Position numbers and translations under genes: made by a program
Part shown: positions 2,163-30,547 of the stretch, in pieces
Layout of the letters: each line of letters opens with the position of its first letter
How positions within the stretch are numbered: the first letter of the stretch is position 1
The notes under the pieces: model-generated
Seen by the model: only the letters and a program-made list of their open reading frames with translations
Told to the model about the DNA's origin: nothing
Databases searched by the model: none
Assembly: GCA_965227835.1 (NCBI GenBank)
Contig: OZ245768.1
Coordinates: forward strand, 90,001 to 122,000
Source of the DNA: Candidatus Saccharimonadota bacterium
Lineage (GTDB): Bacteria; Patescibacteriota; Gracilibacteria; BD1-5; UBA6164
Direction of reading: 5' to 3'
Length of the DNA stretch: 32,000 nucleotides

Positions 2163-3788
2163 ATGACTCTTGAAACAAAAAATAGTGAAAGATACAGGAT
2201 AAAAACTAGAAATATCTTTCCAGATGATCATAAATACCTAACTTTTTTGAAAAAGGTTTTTAGGCATGAATTTAGAAAAAATGGTTTTAGAAGAATTTCT
2301 ACACCTTTTTTTGATGAAAAAAATTTCTTCCAAAAAGTTTTTTGAGAAGATTTAAAAGATAGTCTTATAGATTTCAAGGTTTGAGACTTAGATAGTTTTT
2401 GTCTTAATCCAAGTCCGAGTATTTTAAATTTTAAAGCTTATTTAAAGGAAGAAAAAGATTATGATATACAGCCTGTTTATAATTATTTTATGTGAACTTA
2501 TTTCCCTAAAATTTGAGATTTTTGCACAGAGTGAAAGATTCTTTTTGGTTGAGATGTAATATGAGAAAATGATGTAATTATAGATGTGGTTAATTTGTAT
2601 ATTGTTTCCAATATACTTGATAAAATTTGATTCAAGTGAGAGTATAAGATAAAAATAAACTTTATTTGAAACAAAAAAGAGATATTGAAATATAGTGAAG
2701 CTTTAGAAGAATTTTATTCTGATAAAAAACATATATTAACTGAAAAATGACTAGATTTTCTAGAAGGTTGAGATGTTTTAAAGATTTTTTCGAGCGATAA
2801 TGAAGATGAACAGATTCTTTTCAAAAGTTCTCCTAAAATAGATAAGTTTTATAAAAAAGATAGTAAGAGTGATGTTTTGAGGTTAAAAAAATATTTAGAG
2901 ATATTAAATCTAGATTATGTATGGGATTCTTATTTATTTTGAGAATATGATTTTAATGATTGAGTTATATGGGAAATAAAATTGATAGAAAATTGAGATC
3001 AAACCCAAAACTCTTTCCAAGAGGACCTTACTCCCAACCCTTTCCAAGGGGACTCTACCCCTAACCCCTCTCTGCACGGACCTCACCCCCAGCCCCTCTC
3101 CTCTAAGGAGAGGGGGGTAGGACAGAGGTTATTTAACTCTAGTCTTCCTCAAACACATTCTAATTTTATTCAGCCAAAACTCAGCTCCAGCTCTTTTCAA
3201 GAAAACCTCACTCCCAGCCCCTCTCCTTTGGAGGATAGGGTAGTAGGACAGGGGGAGAGTTTATTCGAAAATTGAGTTGAAGAGGAGGATTCTTATATTG
3301 ATAAAAATATTTTGGCTAGGGGATATTGATATAATGAGTTATCAATTTTGCTAGGAGAGAGTAAAGAAATTGCTTGAAGTTGATTTTGGGTTGATATACT
3401 TAAGTTGATAAATTCTTTAAAATCAAAAAATATTTGTATAAAAAATAAAGATAAACTAGATTTGTTTTTTGTTCAGCTTGGTGATGATGCTAAAAAGGTT
3501 GTTATGCCTCTTAGTTTGAAAGCTAGAAATGCAGGTATAAATACAGCTGTTTCTCTTGGTACTCCTTCTATAAAAGATCAAATGTTAAAGGCTCAAAGGA
3601 GTTGAGCTACTTATGTTGTGATTGTGTGAGTTATGGAAGCAAAGTCTTGAGTTTTTCAAGTTAGGAATAATATCTCAGGTGTACAAGAAGAGGTAAAAAA
3701 AGACGAGCTTATAGATTATATAATAGATAAAATTGGGAGTGAGGCTCTTGATTTTTACGACCCTAGTAGGGATTTATTGGAAGAATAA
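2163..3788 (+). CDS. hisS: Histidine--tRNA ligase carrying an in-frame GC-rich insertion
   Basis: I checked every codon of frame 0 from ATG 2163 to TAA 3786-3788 and found no TAA/TAG. It has a class II HisRS-like N-terminus (RNIFPDD..FRKNGFRRISTPFFD), a GYGYNELS..GSGFWVDIL motif-3 region and a C-terminal anticodon-binding domain (FFVQLGDDAKK..ATYVVIVG). Confidence 0.85.
3000..3262 (+). mobile_element. GC-rich palindromic repeat insertion inside hisS, translated in frame
   Basis: Local GC is far above the surroundings. It contains hairpin CCCCTCTCC-TCTAA-GGAGAGGGG (3093-3115), a decayed second copy (3218-3241) and CTCACCCCCAGCCCC / ACTCCCAACCC modules shared with the repeats at 3948-6262 and 28763-29485. 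It encodes LTPNPFQGDSTPNPSLHGPHPQPLSSKERGVGQ...LTPSPSPLEDRVVGQGE with no stop. Confidence 0.75.
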
Positions 3789-3947
3789 ATAGATTTTTTT
3801 ATTTTTTATATGGATTCTAGATTTACAAAAATATAAAGTTCTCTGCCTACTAAAAATTAAAATAAACATAAAAAGTAGAGAATGAGTTATGTTTTTTTAT
3901 AATCATTTAATTTTATTTTCACTTATTCAATTATTTTAAACATTTTA

Positions 3948-4113
3948 CAAAGAGCTAAAGCTCTCTGTTGAAAAATTTAAAATAAACATAAAAATATTTG
4001 TTCCTTCCCTCTCCTCCAAAGGAGAGGGTTAGGGTGAGATCTGTTTGGGCTAGGTTTATATATTGCCCTATACAAGGGGTCAAGACCCCTTGTCTTAAAG
4101 AGAGACTGAATAG
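3948..4113. repeat. Composite GC-rich repeat element A (short form)
   Basis: 24-nt hairpin motif (3948-3971), AT-rich linker, hairpin CCCTCTCC-TCCAAA-GGAGAGGG (4007-4028), TTAGGGTGAG, hairpin ACAAGGGGTC-AA-GACCCCTTGT (4072-4093), then GACTGAATAG. Near-identical ends to elements B and C. Confidence 0.85.
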
Positions 4114-4204
4114 TTCTTTAGTTTTTGTGTTTTTATACAATTCCATTTTAGTAAATAGTGGTACCTATCTACTGGTACAGTTAATACATCACACAAAAAA
4201 ACTT

Positions 4205-4233
4205 TTGACAAAAAATATATATTTTTATATAAT
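4205..4233 (+). promoter_or_regulatory. Consensus sigma70-type promoter TTGACA-N17-TATAAT
   Basis: TTGACA at 4205-4210, a 17-nt spacer and TATAAT at 4228-4233. Followed about 60 nt later by an imperfect hairpin (AAGGG..CCCCTT) plus a T-run ending near 4297. Confidence 0.4.
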
Positions 4234-4297
4234 GTATACATATCCATACGAAAGGGTTCCAAAAAGTGTTAGTGCTTTAGGATCCCCTTTTTTATTT

Positions 4298-4789
4298 TTA
4301 AGAATATTCAAGATGATTTTTTGCATTTTTTAAATAGTAATATTTCTTGAAAGTAAGTTTATTATACAGGGAAGATGCAAATTTTTTATTAGGAAAAAGT
4401 ATTTTTTCAAACCTATCTTTCTCAATAAGGTAATCAACCAATATTTTGAAATCTCAATCTCAAGTAACTAAAATAATTTTTTCAAACCTATCTCATCTAT
4501 CTATTAAATTTTTCATAATATAAAAAATCATATCAGTATCTATATTTCATTTTTTTAATGAATCCATTTCAGAGACTTGTTTCTTAAAAATCAATTTAAA
4601 TCAAGCATTTTTAATATTATCATATAAATCTTTATTTTTATCATTCTTAAATCATATGAAGTAATAAGCTTTTTTTACTTTATATTTATCTTTTAAAAAT
4701 ATTCTAAATTTATATAAATCTATTTTCCAATTATCTTGTGAAGTTCAAAGGTGTAGGTTTTGTCAGTCTATGAAAGTATAGTTTTTCAT
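4298..4789 (-). CDS. NYN-domain (LabA/DUF88-like) putative RNase
   Basis: ATG (complement of 4787-4789) to TAA (4298-4300), 163 aa. The N-terminal FIDGQNLHLG and central LVTGDGDF (both Gly = TGA) are the NYN/LabA signatures. Confidence 0.75.
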
Positions 4790-4949
4790 AACTTATAAAT
4801 AGTCAATTATTATTTGATAATCTAATTCTTTTCTTTCTTTTTTCTACCAGGTTTAAGTATTTCTTTATGATAGGAAATGTTTTCTAGTTTATTATTATTA
4901 ATTTCAATTTTATTATATTTTTATTTTTTCAATTAGTTTAAACATTTTA

Positions 4950-5176
4950 CAAAGAGCTAAAGCTCTCTGTTGAAAAATTTAAAATAAACATAAAAATATT
5001 TGTTCCTTCCCTCTCCTCCAAAGGAGAGGGTTAGGTTGAGGTCTTGCTTGGAAGGGGTTAGGGTGAGTTTGAGCTGGAGATAGTTACGTCTTTTTAGGTT
5101 TAGAGGAGGTCTTTCTCAGAGAGAGTTAATCTTAGACAAGGGGTCAAGACCCCTTGTCTTAAAGAGGACTGAATAG
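4950..5176. repeat. Composite GC-rich repeat element B (long form)
   Basis: Same architecture as element A with about 100 bp of extra internal sequence that it shares with element C (GTTAGGGTGAGTTTGAGCTGGAGA.AGTTACGTCTT...GAGGAGGTCTTTCTCAGAGAGAGTTAATCTTAGACAA). Confidence 0.85.
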
Positions 5177-5201
5177 TTCTTTATGAGTTTTTCGAATTAC
5201 T

Positions 5202-5594
5202 CTAATCAATATTGGCATTTTTTCTTTTTTCTTCTCTTCTTTTTCTTCTTTGTTCGTTTGCTATAACACTAAATTCAAAAAAATATCTTTCAAAAAATTT
5301 TTTATCTGACTTGTATTCGTTGTATCAAAAAAAATAGTCTGATATAAGTTCACGGATCATACATATCTCTTTTAACTTCGGTGTATTTTTCCATTTTTTG
5401 TCTGCCATTGCCATATCTAACAGTTCATATGCTCTGTTTATAGAGCCTGTAAATTCTTTTTCTTTTCAATTTTCAATATTATTTAAGCTTCTTCATACTT
5501 CTGCTCATATATTGGCTAGTTGTTCATATATAGATAATTCAAACCATCTTCATGATTCAAGAATGTCTCTATGGAATATTATGTGTTTTAGCAT
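5202..5594 (-). CDS. Hypothetical all-helical protein (130 aa); weak resemblance to MazG-like EXXE/NTP-pyrophosphohydrolase helices
   Basis: ATG (5592-5594) to TAG (5202-5204) with TGA=Gly. The start overlaps the upstream gene stop (ATGCTAA). Sequence LSIYEQLANIGAEVGRSL..AYELLDMAMADKKWKN..LKEICMIRELISDYF. Confidence 0.6.
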
Positions 5595-5941
5595 ATAATT
5601 TTTTTGTTTATTAAGTTTTCAATGGTATTTCTTATGTTTTCATCTTCTATATATCTGCTTTTGTTATTTTGATTTGGTCTTATATTTATCATAGAATCGT
5701 ATTCTATGAAATTAGGTGTGTTATAATTATCTGAATATAGATTAATTCACCATAAGTTTTCTTGTTCATATCATTCATCAATCATCATATCTTCTTCATC
5801 TACATGTAAAACTCATCATATAACGAAATCTCAAGACTTTATGTCTATTACTACTTTTGCTAATTTGTTTCCCTCAGGAGAAGAGCAATTTTCATATTCT
5901 TTTATTTCTTCAATTGTTATATTACTTATTATTTTTTTCAT
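5588..5941 (-). CDS. Hypothetical protein (117 aa), first gene of an overlapping pair
   Basis: ATG (5939-5941) to TAA (5588-5590), open with TGA=Gly. I recognise no motif family with confidence. Confidence 0.55.
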
Positions 5942-6047
5942 TTTTTTTATAATATTTTTTTAATTTTTTACTTTCAATTTTATTATATATTTATTTTTAT
6001 TTCTGCAATGGATTTTTTTATAATTATACTTTAATCTTTACTTTAAA

Positions 6048-6262
6048 AACGCTAAAGCTCTTTTTTGCCAAAAACATAAAAATATTTGTTCCTTCCCTCT
6101 CCTCCAAAGGAGAGGGTTAGGGTGAGGTCTGTTCGGATATTGTTAGGGTGAGTTTGAGCTGGAGAGAGTTACGTCTTGCTAGGCTTAGAGGAGGTCTTTC
6201 TCAGAGAGAGTTAATCTTAGACAATGTGTCAAGACCCCTTGTCTTAAAGAGAGACTGAATAG
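6048..6262. repeat. Composite GC-rich repeat element C (long form, degenerate 5' hairpin motif)
   Basis: Shares CATAAAAATATTTGTTCCTTCCCTCTCCTCCAAAGGAGAGGGTTAGGGTGAGGTCTGTTC and the distal hairpin/GACTGAATAG end with A and B. The distal hairpin carries two substitutions (ACAATGTGTC). Confidence 0.85.
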
Positions 6263-6423
6263 TTTTTTAACACTTAAAAAATAATAATTTTTGTAATGCT
6301 TTTGCAACTAAATTTAAACCAATAAAAATAAAAATAAATCTTTTTTGTTCCAAAATTTGCGAGCAGTGAAAAAGTATGTTATCATTTATCTTATAAAGTT
6401 TATAAATAATTTATTTAAGATAG

Positions 6424-11856: not shown

Positions 11857-11889
11857 AAAAAAGAGAGAAATAAATTTCTCTCTTTTTTT
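11857..11889. terminator. Terminator-like hairpin AGAGAGAAA-TAAA-TTTCTCTCT flanked by A- and T-tracts
   Basis: Read directly. It is symmetric, so it could terminate either strand. Confidence 0.5.
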
Positions 11890-11902
11890 AAATTCATTGT
11901 TT

Positions 11903-11926
11903 CAAATGGCTAAAGCCATCTGTTGC
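11903..11926 (+). repeat. 24-nt hairpin motif copy f: CAA-ATGGC-TAAA-GCCAT-CTGTTGC
   Basis: Same family. The stem sequence differs from copies a and b by compensatory changes. Confidence 0.6.
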
Positions 11927-16695: not shown

Positions 16696-16955
16696 TTACT
16701 CAAAATTTTTGTATATTTCATGCACTTCTGAAAATGGATTTTTATCTTTTATATGAATTTTATCCCAATGTATTTTTTCCAAACTTGATATATTCTTATT
16801 TAAATTAGAGATTCCACCTTGTATAATTTTTCTATGAATCTCTATTTTTTCGCTAGAGTATCATTTGTCATAGCCTTTATGGTATTTTTTGATTTCATTT
16901 ATATAAGAATTATTTGTTGAATCAAAATATTTTAAATGTAATAATACAAACAATT
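16696..16955 (-). pseudogene. RloB-like (AbiLii-like) gene, C-terminal segment separated by the IS insertion
   Basis: Reads ..LFVLLHLKYFDSTNNSYINEIKKYHKGYDKGYSSEKIEIHRKIIQGG... to TAA (16696-16698). It joins in frame to 18162-18241 if the IS and one AATT copy are removed. Confidence 0.7.
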
Positions 16956-18161
16956 GGGACCTCTGCAAAAAGATAGATTTAAATTACAAAAATATAATAA
17001 AAAGATTAAAATATGATAAATATTTTAATTTTTTTTTAATGATTATGTCACCATTTAAAGAACAACAAACATTTTTGAATTATTTCCAAAATGAGTTATG
17101 AATTACAAGAACAGAAAAGTTTCTAACAAAATTAGATAAAGTAGTCCCATGGGAATCAATATCAAATAAAATTAATTTATCTAGAGAAATATCAGATTGA
17201 TGAGTTTGAAGACCAAGAATGGAAATACAAAAAATGTTAAAAATACTATTTCTTCAATGACTATATGGATTATCAGATCCGGAAATAGAAGATCAAATAA
17301 GAGACAGAAATAGCTTTCAAAAGTTTCTATGAATATCTGAATCTAAAGATATACCAGATGAAACAACAATATGTAGATTTAGAAATGAATTATCAGAAAA
17401 CTGAAGTCAGGAAACTATATTTACAATGACTCAATTTATTTTAGCTGAAATGTGATTTACAGTAGAAAAGTGATTTATTCAAGATGGTACTATAATAGAA
17501 TCACCAAAATGAAGAAAGAATAATAAATGAGAAAATACAAGAGATAAGGAAGCTAGTTTTACAAAGAAGAATTGAAGAAGTTATCATTGATATAAAGCTC
17601 ATATTGAAACAACAAAGAGAGGAGACTTTGTAATGAATACAACATATACGACAGCTAAGATACATGATTCACAATTATCTGATACTTTAATGACTTGAGA
17701 TGAGAATGAAGAGGCATATTGAGATAGTGCCTATATAAGTAAAGATAAAATAAGATTTTTAGATGAGTTATGAATTAAGTGAGAGTTCAATGAAAGATGA
17801 TCTAGAAATAATCCGTTGACTTCTTATCAAAAAGAACAAAATAGAATTAAATCTACTATTAGGGCAAGAGTAGAACATCCTTTTTCTATTTTAAAGGCTA
17901 AATATTGAAATTATAAAACAAGATATAGATGATTAGTTAAGAATGCTATGCACTGGTTTTTATCTTGTGCTATTTATAATTTTGAACTATTGGCAAGGAG
18001 GTATATATAGCTTTCTAATAGGTGAATTGTGCCTAAATTTGGAAATTATACCTAAAAAAAGGCATAATTCATAGAAATTATCTTATATATTCTTCAAAAA
18101 AAGTGATTTTTATTCAAAATCACTTTTTTCTTGTTCTTTTCAACAATATTGCAGAGGTCCC
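16956..18161 (+). mobile_element. IS5-family insertion sequence (1206 bp)
   Basis: Terminal inverted repeats GGGACCTCTGCAA (16956-16968) / TTGCAGAGGTCCC (18149-18161). AATT is present on both sides (16952-16955 and 18162-18165). It contains a single transposase ORF. Confidence 0.85.
17045..18010 (+). CDS. IS5-family DDE transposase (321 aa)
   Basis: ATG 17045 to TAG 18008-18010 with TGA=Gly. Shows ..LQGLYGLSDPEIEDQIRDRNSFQKFLG.., YGDSAYIS (second D) and RARVEHPFSILKAKYG (catalytic E region), typical of IS5. Confidence 0.85.
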
Positions 18162-21768: not shown

Positions 21769-21809
21769 AAACTTACTTTCTTACTTTGGGACTTTTTAAT
21801 TATTTTTAT

Positions 21810-22670
21810 ATGCCAATAAGTATAAACATTTGATGAAATTTATGAAACAAAAAAATTGATTGAGATTCTACATCACCAATAAATATATCTAGTTGAAATA
21901 TTGAAATTTGATGAGGAAATAATTCAAGTATTGAATTAAGTTCATGAAATATTGAAATTTGATGAGAAAATAATTGAGTTATTGAATTAAGCTCATGAAA
22001 TATTGAGATTTGATGAAAAAATAATTCAAATATTGGAATAAAATCATGAAATATAGATATTAATTGAAATAATGATTGAATTATTAAATTAAAATCATGA
22101 AACATTGAGATTTGATGAAAAAATAATTCAAATATTGAAATAAAATCATGAAGTATAGATATTAATTGAAATAATGATTGAATTATTAAATCAATTTCAT
22201 GAAATATAGATATTAAGTGATATAATTCATGAGATATTTCTACAAATTCATGAAATATTAATATATGAGAAATTAGAATAAGGATTAAAAGAAATTGAAG
22301 TAATATTAATATCTGATGAAATATATTTTCAACATTCAACAGTGTAAGTACAATTATATCTTGAAATAATAGCATTAGTATATCTTGAGGTAATAATAAT
22401 GTATCAATAAATAATTGAGAAGTTTGGATTAATTGAGTTAAACAAGATTGAAATAGTAATTCAAAAAATAATGAATATAAAGTAGATATTGATGGTGTTG
22501 TTATTGATTTTGAAAATAAAAAAGCAACTACAAAAAATTGAGATACTATTGATATTTTGAATGATGGAAATGAATTTATAAAAATTGTATGAGAAAGTAT
22601 TCAAGCGAATTATAAATGACAAATAATCACTATAAAAAAAGATAGTGTTAATGTTGTTTGAAGTAAATAA
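21810..22670 (+). CDS. Gly/Asn-rich beta-helix-type repeat protein (bactofilin/DUF4097-like periodicity), Gly almost entirely TGA-encoded
   Basis: ATG 21810 to TAA 22668-22670 is open only with TGA=Gly. It has 17- and 34-residue repeats SGNIEIGG.NNS.IE..SG.IDINGNNDGIIK, followed by a non-repetitive C-terminal domain. The 189-aa ORF in the track (21806-22375, minus) is its antisense shadow. Confidence 0.65.
21993..22196 (+). repeat. Two near-identical 102-bp tandem repeats inside the beta-helix gene (preceded by diverged 51-bp units from about 21891)
   Basis: Unit 1 (21993-22094) and unit 2 (22095-22196) differ at only a few positions. Confidence 0.8.
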
Positions 22671-27619: not shown

Positions 27620-27687
27620 GAATTTTTCAATTTATTATAGAGGGTATTATTTTAAAACAGAGAGCTGAAAATGTATGGTTGTTTATT

Positions 27688-27711
27688 CAAATAGCTAAAG
27701 CCATCTGTTGA
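27688..27711 (+). repeat. 24-nt hairpin motif copy g: CAA-ATAGC-TAAA-GCCAT-CTGTTGA
   Basis: Same family, with one A/C mismatch in the stem. It lies between the ATPase stop and the recG start. Confidence 0.55.
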
Positions 27712-27829: not shown

Positions 27830-30547
27830 ATGCTAAATACAAAACTCACCAAATCAATTTTAAGAACTACTGATAAATATATAGAAGCTTTATCCAAAGT
27901 TTCTGTAAATACTATATGAGATTTTATAAATCATTTTCCAAGAGATTATGATGACAGAACCGAAGTTATTGATAGTTTTTCCTTAATAAACATAAAAGAG
28001 AAAAATACTGTTTTAGTTTCTCTAGTTTCTATAAATGATAGCAGAACATCAAATAATATGATTTTGACAAAGGCTATAATTGAAGATAAAAATTGATTTT
28101 TATCTGAAGCAGTATGGTTTAACAGAAAATACCTTAGCAATCAGCTAAAATTATATATTTGAAAAAAGATTATTTTAACTTCCAAGGTAAAATATAGTTT
28201 TTGAAAAATAAGTTTTCAAAGTCCAGAAGTTGAAACTGATTTGAGTAAAATTTGATGAGAAATAGTTCCTATATATCCAGATTTAAACTATATTCCAAGT
28301 AAATGGATAGAATGAAAAATGTCTTTACTTAAAACTTATTTTTCTGAAATATCAGAAATCCTACCAGAAAAAATAATAAAGAAATACAATTTTATAAGTA
28401 GAAAAGAAGCTTTTTATCTTATTCATTTTCCCAAAAATAAAAACGATATTGAGGTTTGAAGGTTTAGGCTTTGATATGAAGAATTATTTAATATAAACTA
28501 TAAAACTATTTCCAAAAAATATGAATCTTTTTCTAATTCAAAATGAAAATCGGTTGTTATAAAGCTTAATCCAAACCTTATAAAATACATAATTTCTAAA
28601 CTAAAGTTTGAACTCACTGATAATCAAAAAATTGTTCTTTTTCAAATACTTAAAGATATGGAAAAAGAACACTCTATGTCTAGGCTTTTAGAATGAGATG
28701 TTTGAACTTGAAAAACTATAGTTGCTTTGATTGTAAGTATTCATGCTATTTTGGAAACTTTACCTGAATACAACAGATACAACCAAGACAAGGGGTCTTG
28801 ACCCCTTGGTAAATCTTGTTTGACTGAATCTAATCCTCAACCTCCTAAAACTCACCCCCAGCCCTCCTCTGACATCCCTCACCCCCAGCCCCTCTCCTTT
28901 GGAGGAGAGGGGAGTAGAACATTTTCAACTTCCATAGCTTCTTTTTTGGAAGATAGAAATTTAGAACATACTTCACTTTCATCTTTACAGAACTTATTTA
29001 CAGATAAAAATAATATTTGAAAAACTTATTTGAAGTCACCTGCTTATGTTTTTGATTTAGCGAAAAAATTTAGAAAATATCCAACAGAGCCTGAAAAAAA
29101 ACTTTGGCTTTATCTTAGAAATAATAAATTTGATGATTTAAAATTTAGAAGACAACATCCTGTTTGAAGATATATTGCAGACTTTTGTTGTGAGGAATTA
29201 AAATTGATTGTTGAAATTGATTGAAAAATACATGATTCTAAATTTCAAAAAGAATATGAGGAAGAGAGAGATAATTTATTAAAAAACTATTGATTTAATA
29301 TAGTTAGATTAAAAAATGAAGACATTTTATATAATGATAAAGAATCTATATATCTCAAAATAAAAAAATCTGTTTTATCCCAATTTTCTTTCCCCTCTCC
29401 TTCAAAGGAGAGGGTTAGGGTGAGGTCTGTTCAGAAAGATTGAATTTTAGATTTTGGAGAGGGGAGTAGAACATTTTCAAATCCTATCCAAACTGTTTTT
29501 ATAGCTCCTACTGAAATACTCGCTTATCAACACTTTCAAAGTAGTCAAGAACTTTTAAATACTTTTTGAATCACTTCTTATTTACTCACTGGTTCTACTA
29601 CACAAAAACAAAAAATGGAGATAAAAGACTGAATGAAAAACGGAGATGTAGATATTATTTTTGGTACACATGCTTTGTTGCAAGATGACATACTTTTTAA
29701 AAATTTATGATTTGTAATTATAGATGAACAACATAGATTTTGAGTAAAACAAAGAGAAATACTGGAAGCTGGATTTTGAAATATAAGTGGTATGATACCT
29801 CACAGCTTAAATATGACAGCTACTCCAATACCAAGAACTCTTGCTTTAACTTTATACTGAGATCAAGATTTAAGCATAATTAATAAATATCCAAAATGAA
29901 GAAAAGAGATTTTTACTAAAGTTGTGAAAAATGAAAAAGAGAGAAAACAAGTAGAACTTTTTATTAAAAATGAACTTGATAAAGGTAGGCAAATTTTTTG
30001 GATATCACCTTTGGTTGAAGAATCAGAAAAGATAGATTTAGCTAATGCAATAAATACACATAGTTATTTAGAAAATATCTTTTTCCCTTACAAGGTCTGA
30101 CTTCTACATGGTAAAATGAAACCCAAGGAAAAAGAGGAAATTATGCTTAGTTTCAAGAAAAATTATATTAATGTTTTATCTTCCACATCTGTTGTAGAAG
30201 TCTGAGTTGATATAGCTAATGCTTCTGTTATTTGTATAGAGTGAGCTGAAAGGTTTGGTCTTAGTCAGCTTCATCAATTTAGATGAAGAGTAGGTAGAGG
30301 AGATTATAAATCTTATTGTTATTTATTTCCTAGTTCTTGAAATTATACAGATAGGCTGAAAGCTATGGAAAAAACTAATAATGGTTTTGAATTATCAGAA
30401 ATAGATTTAGAAATAAGATGACCTTGAGAAGTTTATTGAGTGAGACAATCATGACTGCCAGATTTAAAAATTGCAAAACTTACAGATTTGGAGTTAATTT
30501 CAGAGATTAGGGAAGATATAGAAGATTTGATGTTAAACGGAGAGTAA
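27830..30547 (+). CDS. recG: ATP-dependent DNA helicase RecG carrying an in-frame insertion of about 240 codons between helicase motifs I and Ia
   Basis: ATG 27830 to TAA 30545-30547. I verified frame 2 codon by codon from 28742 to 29521. Motif I LLEGDVGTGKT (28688-28717), motif Ia VFIAPTEILAYQH (29495-29533), DEQHRFG, TATPIPRTL, QLHQFRGRVGRG. Confidence 0.85.
28763..29485 (+). mobile_element. GC-rich hairpin repeat element with embedded DUF559 (Vsr-like PD-(D/E)xK endonuclease) module, inserted in frame in recG
   Basis: Hairpins CAAGGGGTC-TT-GACCCCTTG (28789-28808), CCCCTCTCC-TTTGGA-GGAGAGGGG (28889-28912) and CCCTCTCC-TTCAAA-GGAGAGGG (29393-29414). A 25-bp direct repeat GGAGAGGGGAGTAGAACATTTTCAA lies at 28904-28928 and 29456-29480. 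The DUF559-type sequence AKKFRKYPTEPEKKLWLYLRNNKFDDLKFRRQHPVGRYIADFCCEELKLIVEIDGKIHD...RDNLLKNYGFNIVRL spans about 29060-29311. Confidence 0.75.

Follow-up and report, generated by a model that had tools for sequence, protein, structure and literature searches.

Our results show that the histidyl-tRNA synthetase (HisRS) gene hisS in a 32,000-nt stretch of contig OZ245768.1 (hereafter, at its full length, the window), from a bacterium of the Gracilibacteria, carries what comparison with its relatives identifies as a recent, lineage-specific, in-frame insertion of ~279 nt. The repeats from which this insert is built belong, judged by their sequence, to the pan-bacterial BoxC/PIT/TMECO triplex motif family, which is not peculiar to the window genome. 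The same family proves to be physically associated with DUF559 genes across bacteria and there forms the ends of in-frame cassettes, an association that is strong and apparently unreported. The hisS insert itself is most likely a nuclease-less array of the motif family that is tolerated in a surface loop. The best explanation of the data taken jointly, which we regard as probable, is that hisS holds a BoxC/TMECO array in a tolerant loop and that the motif is the end or landing pad of a selfish DUF559 cassette.

The host gene hisS (2163..3788; this and all features below lie on the + strand unless stated) has 541 codons in genetic code 25, among them 22 in-frame TGA codons read as glycine; its best model is TIGR00442 (hisS), and it includes an HGTP_anticodon domain. 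The product matches the S. aureus HisRS structure 1qe0 in two blocks, query residues 15-273 with chain residues 8-270 and query residues 384-520 with chain residues 283-418, leaving query residues 273-384 opposite chain residues 270-283 and ~98 query residues without counterpart. At the insert site no residue is present in any of 20 aligned HisRS homologs, which came from a search of 5.8 billion proteins and have 46-64% identity and a core of 424-448 amino acids (aa); a few are longer, N-terminally. None of the 20 contains the homologous, non-repetitive segment that an earlier note on this DNA, made from the sequence alone, had named as the observation that would speak against an insertion. 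In the closest relative with a usable contig (L202, 63% identical) the empty site reads WKIKL-SSSDT-VLASGYGYNE, and the occupied site in the window reads WEIKL-IENG[93 aa]VEEEDSYIDKN-ILARGYGYNE. The sole full-length match, P0001, is the same gene with TGA translated as Trp (22/541 differences). The insert follows the strand that ends in ...VIWEIKL and precedes the GGRYD-equivalent ARGYGYNE, which puts it between class II motifs 2 and 3, as had been proposed.

With its best-defined boundaries the insert occupies 2998..3276 (279 nt, 93 codons, Pro/Ser/Gly-rich), slightly more than the 3000-3262 given in the earlier note, which had the location right; ~10 extra residues lie beyond the right boundary, to roughly 3297. 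The 10-nt direct repeat GAAAATTGAG stands immediately left of the insert (2988..2997) and again at its right end (3267..3276) and is a candidate target-site duplication. At 51% GC in a window of 25.6% GC, absent from 20/20 homologs and crossed by an open reading frame (ORF) of 541 aa, the segment is indeed a GC-rich, stop-free repeat insert lying in frame. Its stop-free frames are the actual frame and one antisense frame. A given frame stays open over 93 codons in only 6% of composition-matched shuffles, so the open frame bears the mark of selection on a gene still being used. The 93-aa peptide has no matches in the protein database, and the translated array therefore appears in no other protein there. 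An ancestral domain was also considered for the nature of the segment and was rejected.

Structure prediction suggests how the insert is accommodated. An AlphaFold2 model was built from a 26-sequence alignment and the P0001 sequence, whose Trp at the 22 TGA codons leaves the location of the disordered insert unaffected and may alter the model slightly. The predicted local distance difference test score (pLDDT) is 31-42 at residues 278-378 compared with 80-91 in the HisRS core, with no secondary structure predicted for these residues, which lie between strands 266-274 and 383-389. The earlier suggestion of a surface region that tolerates variation agrees with this predicted disordered loop, and placement of the insert peptide in such a loop, flanked by two catalytic-domain strands, would be why the hisS gene remains intact. 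The TIGR00442 match is collinear over 6-405 of 406 with the insert deleted and falls into two stretches with the insert kept. We infer that the insert is translated as a Pro/Ser/Gly-rich peptide of ~95-100 residues. A Pfam search detected no Hint/intein domain in HisRS or RecG, and intein-type junctions (Cys/Ser/Thr at the N-terminal side; His-Asn plus Cys/Ser/Thr at the C-terminal side) are absent at the ends of the hisS insert. The only known structured RNA at gathering score in the window is one tRNA, with no match to an intron or ribozyme family, and a permissive Rfam search of 2900-3400 returned only sub-threshold matches to the whalefall-1 hairpin. These whalefall-1 (RF01762) matches fall on both strands of the motif hairpin at 3079-3123 (E = 0.13-0.48) and probably reflect mere hairpin similarity.

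The choice of genetic code follows from several observations. ORFs of ≥100 aa total 1,496 aa under table 11, in which TGA shreds them, and 12,538 aa with TGA as sense; in an alignment to S. aureus HisRS, TGA codons stand opposite conserved glycines (GxGF of motif 3 and ...iG of motif 2); and the named homologs of the window HisRS are Candidatus Gracilibacteria. The code is therefore taken to be code 25 (TGA = glycine), with which all translations were made. Under this code, the hisS product appears to be a divergent, full-length member of the HisRS family. TIGR00442 matches it over its full length with 144 bits, the equivalog cutoff being 287 bits, and the Pfam tRNA-synt_His score is below the family cutoff. 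In the alignment the window protein has no Arg opposite the motif-2 arginines, the motif-3 arginine or the R259-equivalent of class II HisRS. The divergent catalytic domain is common to the whole Gracilibacteria clade, in which the N-terminal DHKYLTFLKKVFRHEFRKNGFRR block stays invariant. The earlier note had spoken of a second essential gene hit in frame. As regards recG, the other gene, the in-frame hit holds; for hisS the label 'essential gene' is likely rather than proven, given the 144 of 287 bits and the non-conserved canonical arginines.

Knowledge of BoxC/PIT/TMECO repeats goes back to the 1990s. The motif is 5'-CCCTCNCCC-N3-6-GGGNGAGGG-N3-GGGNGAGGG, the published search for it tolerates one mismatched triplet, and in vitro it was shown to adopt the fold of an intrastrand purine-motif triplex (Holder et al. 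2015, PMC4666352). The same study counted 3,610 occurrences in 262 proteobacterial genomes, found the motif abundant in cyanobacteria, described it in E. coli as 'always located intergenically' and tied to local rearrangement, and found 'never ... activities that provide genetic mobility' beside it (PMC4666352). It also describes Salmonella as having no TMECO (PMC4666352). Another study presents the identical sequence as a G-quadruplex/hairpin switch (HPGQ) that occurs 'only in intergenic regions' (Doluca/Kaplan et al., 10.1101/032615), and Enterobacter sp. 638 has 100 palindromes of BoxC-type sequence at gene 3' ends (PMC2869309). These three sources report no function for the motif (PMC4666352; 10.1101/032615; PMC2869309).

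A profile built from the window copies counts seven full copies (3082, 3207, 4007, 5009, 6095, 28878 and 29393) plus fragments, where five had been counted before. All seven match the TMECO pattern at all but 2-5 of its 24 specified positions, and 50 shuffled windows yielded 0 matches, which upholds the proposal that a dispersed palindromic repeat family had inserted here. The published criterion is stricter than this fit, the stems being AT-shifted and the second loop of the B-like copies having 3-5 nt. Four copies are of type A, with TTA as the second loop (4007, 5009, 6095 and 29393), and three are type-B-like, with GCT or GCTGG (3082, 3207 and 28878); the hairpin part of intact copies has a folding energy of -9 to -13 kcal/mol. 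Four of the seven lie in coding sequence, two in hisS and two in recG, and so lack the intergenic location reported for TMECO. A compensated C:G -> T:A pair at the loop base, giving CCCTCTCCT / AGGAGAGGG instead of ...CCC / GGG..., is present in every copy. This shared derived pair points to amplification of the window copies from a single founder inside the lineage. Motif and core hairpin are absent from four other Gracilibacteria hisS neighbourhoods (~80 kb, 22-30% GC).

The hisS insert is an array of these units with the C-rich strand as sense. The units have a three-block repeat design, a Y-block head CTCACCC followed by a CCCTCTCC / GGAGAGGG hairpin. The array begins with three decayed units of 27-28 nt (3000-3026, 3027-3053 and 3054-3081), each a CTyACyCC-like head with a mini-hairpin, that read in 9-codon register as QNSFQED / LTPNPFQGD / STPNPSLHG and contain a weak profile match at 3017-3045. 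In all, the decayed units of 27-31 nt in this register number at least 3-4, and two of them, as read from the sequence, keep their mini-stems by paired changes (CTCTT/AAGAG vs CCCTT/AAGGG). Next comes motif copy 1 (3082..3125), a type-B-like copy of the form CTCACCCCCAGC-CCCTCTCC-TCTAA-GGAGAGGGG with a GTAGGACAG tail and the second loop GCTGG, which has 3/24 mismatches to the TMECO pattern and an nhmmer E of 3e-12. Its hairpin (3093-3115), with a 10-bp stem and -12.8 kcal/mol, is as intact as had been noticed earlier. An AT-rich spacer of 50 nt (3126..3175) separates this half of the insert from the other, in which a head unit and motif copy 2 with a decayed GGATAGGG arm (3176..3250) make up a 75-nt module common to recG, with 80-84% identity to 28847-28921. 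Copy 2 has 5/24 mismatches, and its hairpin (3218-3241; -5.4 kcal/mol) is no better than shuffles, in line with its earlier description as decayed. Preserved copies and decayed units all have one orientation. Each half of the insert aligns to recG at 28847-28921 over 71-75 nt with 84-85% identity (z = 21-26). The module that had been recognized in both hisS and ~28851-28892 is therefore genuine, and these alignments show that one 75-nt version has been copied within the genome, with two copies in hisS and a further one in recG.

To follow the family beyond the window we used a search pattern from the window copies, CTCACCC-N3-5-CCCTCTCC-N5-6-GGAGAGGG, whose 23 specified bases make chance matches essentially nil. 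It matched at least 120 stretches of species-representative genome contigs from at least 15 phyla, including Pseudomonas, Enterobacteriaceae, Xanthomonas, Planctomycetota, Chloroflexota, Acidobacteriota, Actinomycetota, Verrucomicrobiota, Bacteroidota, Cyanobacteria, Myxococcota and Nitrospirota, and, in IMG/VR, at least 120 stretches of viral and prophage contigs. Phages could have carried the motif from one phylum to another. One of the 120 viral contigs (L205-L324) has DUF559 at a distance of 74 nt from the motif. Of 152 exact motifs, roughly 5-8 fall within genes. Gene-internal motifs without DUF559 are rare; examples are a motif within the Radical_SAM_N domain of a YgiQ protein from Polaromonas (L070) and an inverted motif pair inside the gene of a YfhO-like membrane protein (L094).

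The second host gene, recG (27830..30547; Pfam), has a ~242-aa insert that separates helicase motif I (GTGKT) from motif Ia (APTEILA); RecG query residues 302-552 lie opposite residues 409-417 of T. maritima RecG 1gm5, and the insert spans 28757-29482 of the window. Its 5' array (28847..28928) is made up of a head unit, a type-B-like motif (CTCACCCCCAGCCCCTCTCCTTTGGAGGAGAGGGG; 2/24 mismatches) and a tail. The last 25 nt of this array (28904-28928; 3' arm + tail) are the left copy of an exact 25-nt direct repeat, GGAGAGGGGAGTAGAACATTTTCAA, whose right copy lies 552 nt (184 codons) away at 29456..29480. Between the two copies lies a DUF559 (Vsr-fold endonuclease) domain in the RecG frame (29054..29362; aa 409-511; Pfam PF04480, 2.2e-31; PDB 3hrl, 8e-15); in a six-seed DUF559 alignment the window copy has 16/16 invariant columns, by construction. 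The 3' motif (29393..29426) is of type A, has 3/24 mismatches and is inverted relative to the 5' copy, such that its G-rich strand is sense and is read in the frame KERVRVRS. The B-like and A copies thus form an inverted pair whose members, instead of adjoining each other, stand 480 nt apart with DUF559 between them. The earlier note had recorded the repeat module in recG and overlooked the DUF559 domain between the copies, which is the best clue to mechanism. With the cassette and one copy of the 25-nt repeat removed, RecG is in frame with a 57-aa motif array, a hisS-like state that suggests an order of events in recG in which the motif array came first and the DUF559 cassette entered later. 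A DUF559 domain flanked by the motif within ~150 nt is found in the recG insert and not in the hisS insert. The recG insert also contains, at 28787-28809, a ACAAGGGGTCAAGACCCCTTGT hairpin that recurs elsewhere in the window.

The link between motif and nuclease extends well beyond recG. In loci selected by the motif (120 genome and 120 viral), there are five DUF559 genes, and 5/5 are within 150 nt of a motif (P ~3e-6). For the reverse test we took 80 metagenome loci chosen solely by DUF559 homology, which are those most similar to the window copy, perhaps of one subfamily, and carry no taxonomic labels, and scored motifs with ≤3 mismatches. A motif lies within 300 nt of DUF559 in 24/80 loci and, by a count from the listing, on both sides in 18 of these 24; the near zone, 23% of sequence space, holds 63/73 motifs (density ratio 21.6; locus-level p = 1e-11). 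Tandem motif arrays also occur in this material: one locus (L126, 3340-3640) has, immediately downstream of its DUF559 gene, seven motif copies with a period of 43 nt, and tandem arrays are also present in L119. E. coli K-12 (NC_000913.3) has TMECO #9 of Table 1 in Holder et al. (1,351,205-1,351,239), one of 18 TMECO loci in E. coli, 168 nt downstream of ycjD ('DUF559 domain-containing protein'), a proximity with a chance of ~0.002 for a given gene and in the same orientation to the gene as the recG 3' copy; ycjD and TMECO #9 together occupy NC_000913.3 1351205-1351760 (locus L121, 2706-3261). Of 5,426 complete genomes of E. coli, ~38% lose homology with K-12 at ~40 nt before TMECO #9, and E. 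coli O157:H7 has a TetR/RND island in place of the ycjD region, with no motif at the junction. These breakpoints fit an 'unstable locus' and are uninformative on mobility. In the library searched, no paper was found that links DUF559 or YcjD to the BoxC/TMECO repeat.

In ~10 of the 80 DUF559 loci the nuclease is nested in frame inside another gene, and at least 9 host gene families have such cassettes. Pfam confirms that DUF559 has host domains on either side in MetRS (L011, a betaproteobacterium), LeuRS (L129), IleRS (L174), a Type ISP restriction-modification enzyme (L114, Prolixibacteraceae), chorismate synthase AroC (L152), TsaB (L132/L133) and an S-adenosylmethionine (SAM) methyltransferase (L188). 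In GlgB (L131) DUF559 is fused at the N-terminus, and a further locus (L122) is Type ISP-like by eye only; along its gene, motif pairs recur every 0.5-0.9 kb, all in frame. In AroC and LeuRS the motifs are the outermost ends of the insert against host codons, in the arrangement CTCACC...hairpin ... DUF559 ... hairpin...GGTGAG. The peptides encoded by the cassette ends (SPPxPLxxGEG, PSPSGRGxGGEG and KERVRVR) are Pro/Gly-rich, and their frame differs by host. In the IleRS locus DUF559 is flanked by another three-block repeat, CTCCCCCC-GG-CCCCCTCC-GAA-GGAGGGGG; its blocks vary jointly and the mirror/hairpin design is kept, which hints that architecture matters beyond sequence.

We therefore propose a model in which a selfish cassette with a DUF559 nuclease would have the motif family as its terminus, its landing pad or both. 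The DUF559 nuclease would nick or cut the structured motif, and repair or recombination would then copy motif-bounded DNA to new sites. Nuclease-less arrays such as that in hisS would be non-autonomous products or unoccupied landing pads, and recG would represent the occupied state, in which the cassette had moved into an array already present there, duplicating 25 nt of that array. In needed genes, only those inserts that by chance are stop-free multiples of three in tolerant loops would survive. Such nuclease-driven spread is what we infer from the distribution of motif and nuclease. A fuller version of this model, which we put forward tentatively and hold at somewhat less than even, is that BoxC/PIT/TMECO repeats are both the ends and the landing pads of a pan-bacterial selfish DUF559 (YcjD-type, Vsr-fold) element that inserts in frame into housekeeping genes (aminoacyl-tRNA synthetases, RecG, AroC and TsaB), is not spliced and encodes Pro/Gly linkers through its repeats, with hisS holding a nuclease-less and recG a full form.

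Several observations weigh against this model. DUF559 nucleases are not known to act on the motif or to be specific for it. Motifs far outnumber DUF559 genes (5 in 240 motif-selected loci), and among the 5,426 E. coli genomes there is no clean empty site for the ycjD + TMECO block. In hisS, Pfam detects no DUF559 domain, and the 81-nt insert centre gives a score of 21 against the recG cassette interior, with a null of 20 ± 2.7, and hence no DUF559 remnant; the hisS insert as a deleted recG-type DUF559 cassette was accordingly dropped as a candidate, the central 81 nt being no better than shuffles. The hisS copies are direct, not inverted, and the insert is therefore no simple MITE-like derivative (MITE, miniature inverted-repeat transposable element) of a recG-type cassette. 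A flanking repeat of ≥10 nt at the hisS insert has a chance P of ~0.03, which is of marginal significance, and the GAAAATTGAG repeats are therefore suggestive as a candidate target-site duplication only. Finally, it is the intact frame from which translation of the hisS insert is deduced.

The main rival holds that the repeats spread enzyme-free, by slippage, template switching and recombination at hairpin, triplex or G-quadruplex DNA, that DUF559 is a homing gene that prefers such sites, and that the hisS array is unrelated to the nuclease. We consider it rather unlikely, although sequence data do not tell it apart from the nuclease model. That the motif has in E. coli been tied to local rearrangement and that no mobility genes were found (Holder 2015, PMC4666352) is what enzyme-free spread would lead one to expect, as are tandem arrays of regular period (27 nt in hisS, 43 nt in L126), the absence of DUF559 near most motifs and the resemblance of recG to a cassette that landed in a pre-existing motif. 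However, slippage accounts for the growth of arrays and not for the presence of one and the same 23-nt pattern across at least 15 phyla, and it leaves unexplained the arrival of the motif in the unrelated genes hisS and recG when the sampled relatives are motif-free. Moreover, inverted motif termini on both sides of DUF559, set directly against host codons, fit carried ends better than a split target. The earlier note had instead envisaged a mobile element selected to preserve reading frames. Such an element would have been shaped for harmless translation, frame-preserving and stop-free like the Rickettsia palindromic elements (RPE). Two genes hit in frame within 32 kb, the 27-nt, 9-codon period of the hisS units, the low proportion (6%) of composition-matched shuffles with an open frame, the recurrence of in-frame copies in many host genes of other phyla and the resemblance of the encoded Pro/Gly/Ser peptides to flexible linkers could all be read in this way. 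We nevertheless judge it improbable: the motif has no single frame, as heads are read as PHPQPL, SPPxPL or LTPxL and arms as GEG, GRG or ERVRV depending on the host, and the great majority of copies are intergenic. The C/T-rich core strand cannot by its composition encode stops, and survivorship in needed genes alone leads one to expect lengths that are multiples of three; together these therefore explain stop-free multiples of three.

Two further rivals concern the hisS segment more narrowly. The insert might be removed as an intron or intein, or bypassed in translation with the GAAAATTGAG copies as take-off and landing sites. Such a reading could draw on the identical 10-mers at both insert ends and the strong hairpin within, and in yeast mitochondria GC-rich inserts in AT-rich genes are indeed bypassed. 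It is nonetheless very improbable in view of the lack of any intron or ribozyme family match, of a Hint/intein domain and of intein junction residues, of a length of 279 nt, which is far above known bypass gaps, and of an open, in-register frame that would not be needed if the insert were removed. Least probable of all, to the point of being negligible, is an assembly artefact or contamination in which foreign GC-rich DNA was joined into an AT-rich contig. The GC step from 25% to 51% and the abundance of the motif in GC-rich bacteria would fit such an origin, but the seven copies lie in different contexts and all have the lineage-specific, AT-shifted compensated stem, the inserts are in frame with intact gene sequence on both sides, an identical protein (P0001) is already on record, and the decayed, AT-enriched units indicate residence in the window genome.

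Placing the nuclease model next to known systems brings out what is particular to it. The window repeats share with BoxC/PIT/TMECO the three-block sequence CCCTCNCCC-loop-GGGNGAGGG-loop-GGGNGAGGG, the two second-loop types (A, TTA; B, CCG-like and C/G-rich) and the occurrence as multi-copy dispersed repeats, inverted pairs and arrays. They differ in that BoxC/PIT/TMECO is reported as intergenic only and from Proteobacteria and cyanobacteria, whereas in the window 4/7 copies lie within genes, the host is a code-25 member of the Gracilibacteria with 25.6% GC, the stems have compensated C:G -> T:A changes, the B-like second loop has 3-5 nt and two copies bracket a nuclease domain. RPE, which Ogata and colleagues reportedly described in 2000, are said to be short palindromic repeats that lie in frame in housekeeping genes of a reduced genome and are translated and tolerated at the protein surface. 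Their resemblance to the hisS insert is functional only, as they are another sequence family with a narrow host range, and we know of no nuclease gene associated with them and of no triplex-type three-block design. In the REP/REPIN system, many short GC-rich hairpin repeats coexist with few RAYT genes, and the RAYT gene is itself repeat-flanked. REP/RAYT is thus a good analogy for a trans-acting mobiliser of the motif by DUF559, with the differences that RAYT is a Y1/HUH transposase, that REPs are extragenic and that DUF559 is instead a Vsr-fold (PD-(D/E)xK-like) nuclease. Vsr-like homing endonucleases are, in the literature searched, known only from inteins, introns and 'fractured genes' (Dassa 2009, PMC2677866; I-Bth0305I, Taylor 2011, PMC3239194). 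Inteins and intron homing endonucleases likewise place an endonuclease ORF in frame in housekeeping genes (aminoacyl-tRNA synthetases, RecG, AroC) with a sporadic cross-phylum distribution; the DUF559 inserts differ in having no Hint domain or intron, in being bounded by triplex motifs, in apparently staying in the protein and in the existence of a copy, in hisS, without the nuclease. MITEs share with the arrays the character of short, non-coding, multi-copy relatives of a longer gene-bearing element and a possible target-site duplication, and differ from them in that the hisS copies are direct and have no terminal inverted repeats, in the weakness of the candidate duplication and in that no transposase is involved.

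The three intergenic type A motifs of the window (4007..4040, 5009..5042 and 6095..6128) lie in a region, 3887-6270, of three ~1-kb units, each with one or two small genes (NYN 4301-4792(-), unknown 5205-5663(-), DUF5674 5591-5959(-)). The motif at 4007 has the form CCCTCTCCT-CCAA-AGGAGAGGG-TTA-GGGTGAGAT and is part of a ~156-nt composite module. The units are separated by composite modules of 156-190 nt, composed of a GCTAAAGC hairpin, the triplex motif and a ACAAGGGGTCAAGACCCCTTGT hairpin; modules 2 and 3 have 92% identity over 186 nt. The region resembles a cassette array, and no integrase was seen in it. An intergenic motif of ~48 nt, consisting of a GCTAAAGC-centred hairpin and then CTGTTGA, occurs at 1419-1466, 3924-3971, 4926-4973, 11879-11926 and 27664-27711. 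Every copy is intergenic, and the motif may act as a terminator or as a promoter-associated signal in this lineage. Elsewhere in the window, an ORF at 21771-22667 has seven tandem 51-nt repeats (17 aa; SGNIEIGGxNN...) and probably encodes a repeat-containing surface protein, and an IS5-like transposase ORF (16907-18007; DDE_Tnp_1 + DUF772) represents a second, unrelated mobile element.

The repeat family has long been known; what is new are its apparently translated copies in hisS and recG and its link to DUF559. The BoxC/triplex motif is among the most widely conserved short bacterial DNA sequences, and our findings indicate that it can reside, apparently translated, in essential-type genes and that it has invaded a tiny, AT-rich, recoded genome of the candidate phyla radiation whose sampled relatives are motif-free. 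The DUF559 inserts would represent endonuclease insertions in conserved proteins with an intein-like distribution and without splicing, which is relevant for genome annotation, in which they may surface as split domain hits or 'fusion' proteins, and for how proteins tolerate insertions. Finally, the link turns an old descriptive puzzle into one that can be tested at the bench in E. coli, where YcjD may cut or nick TMECO and thereby drive its copying.

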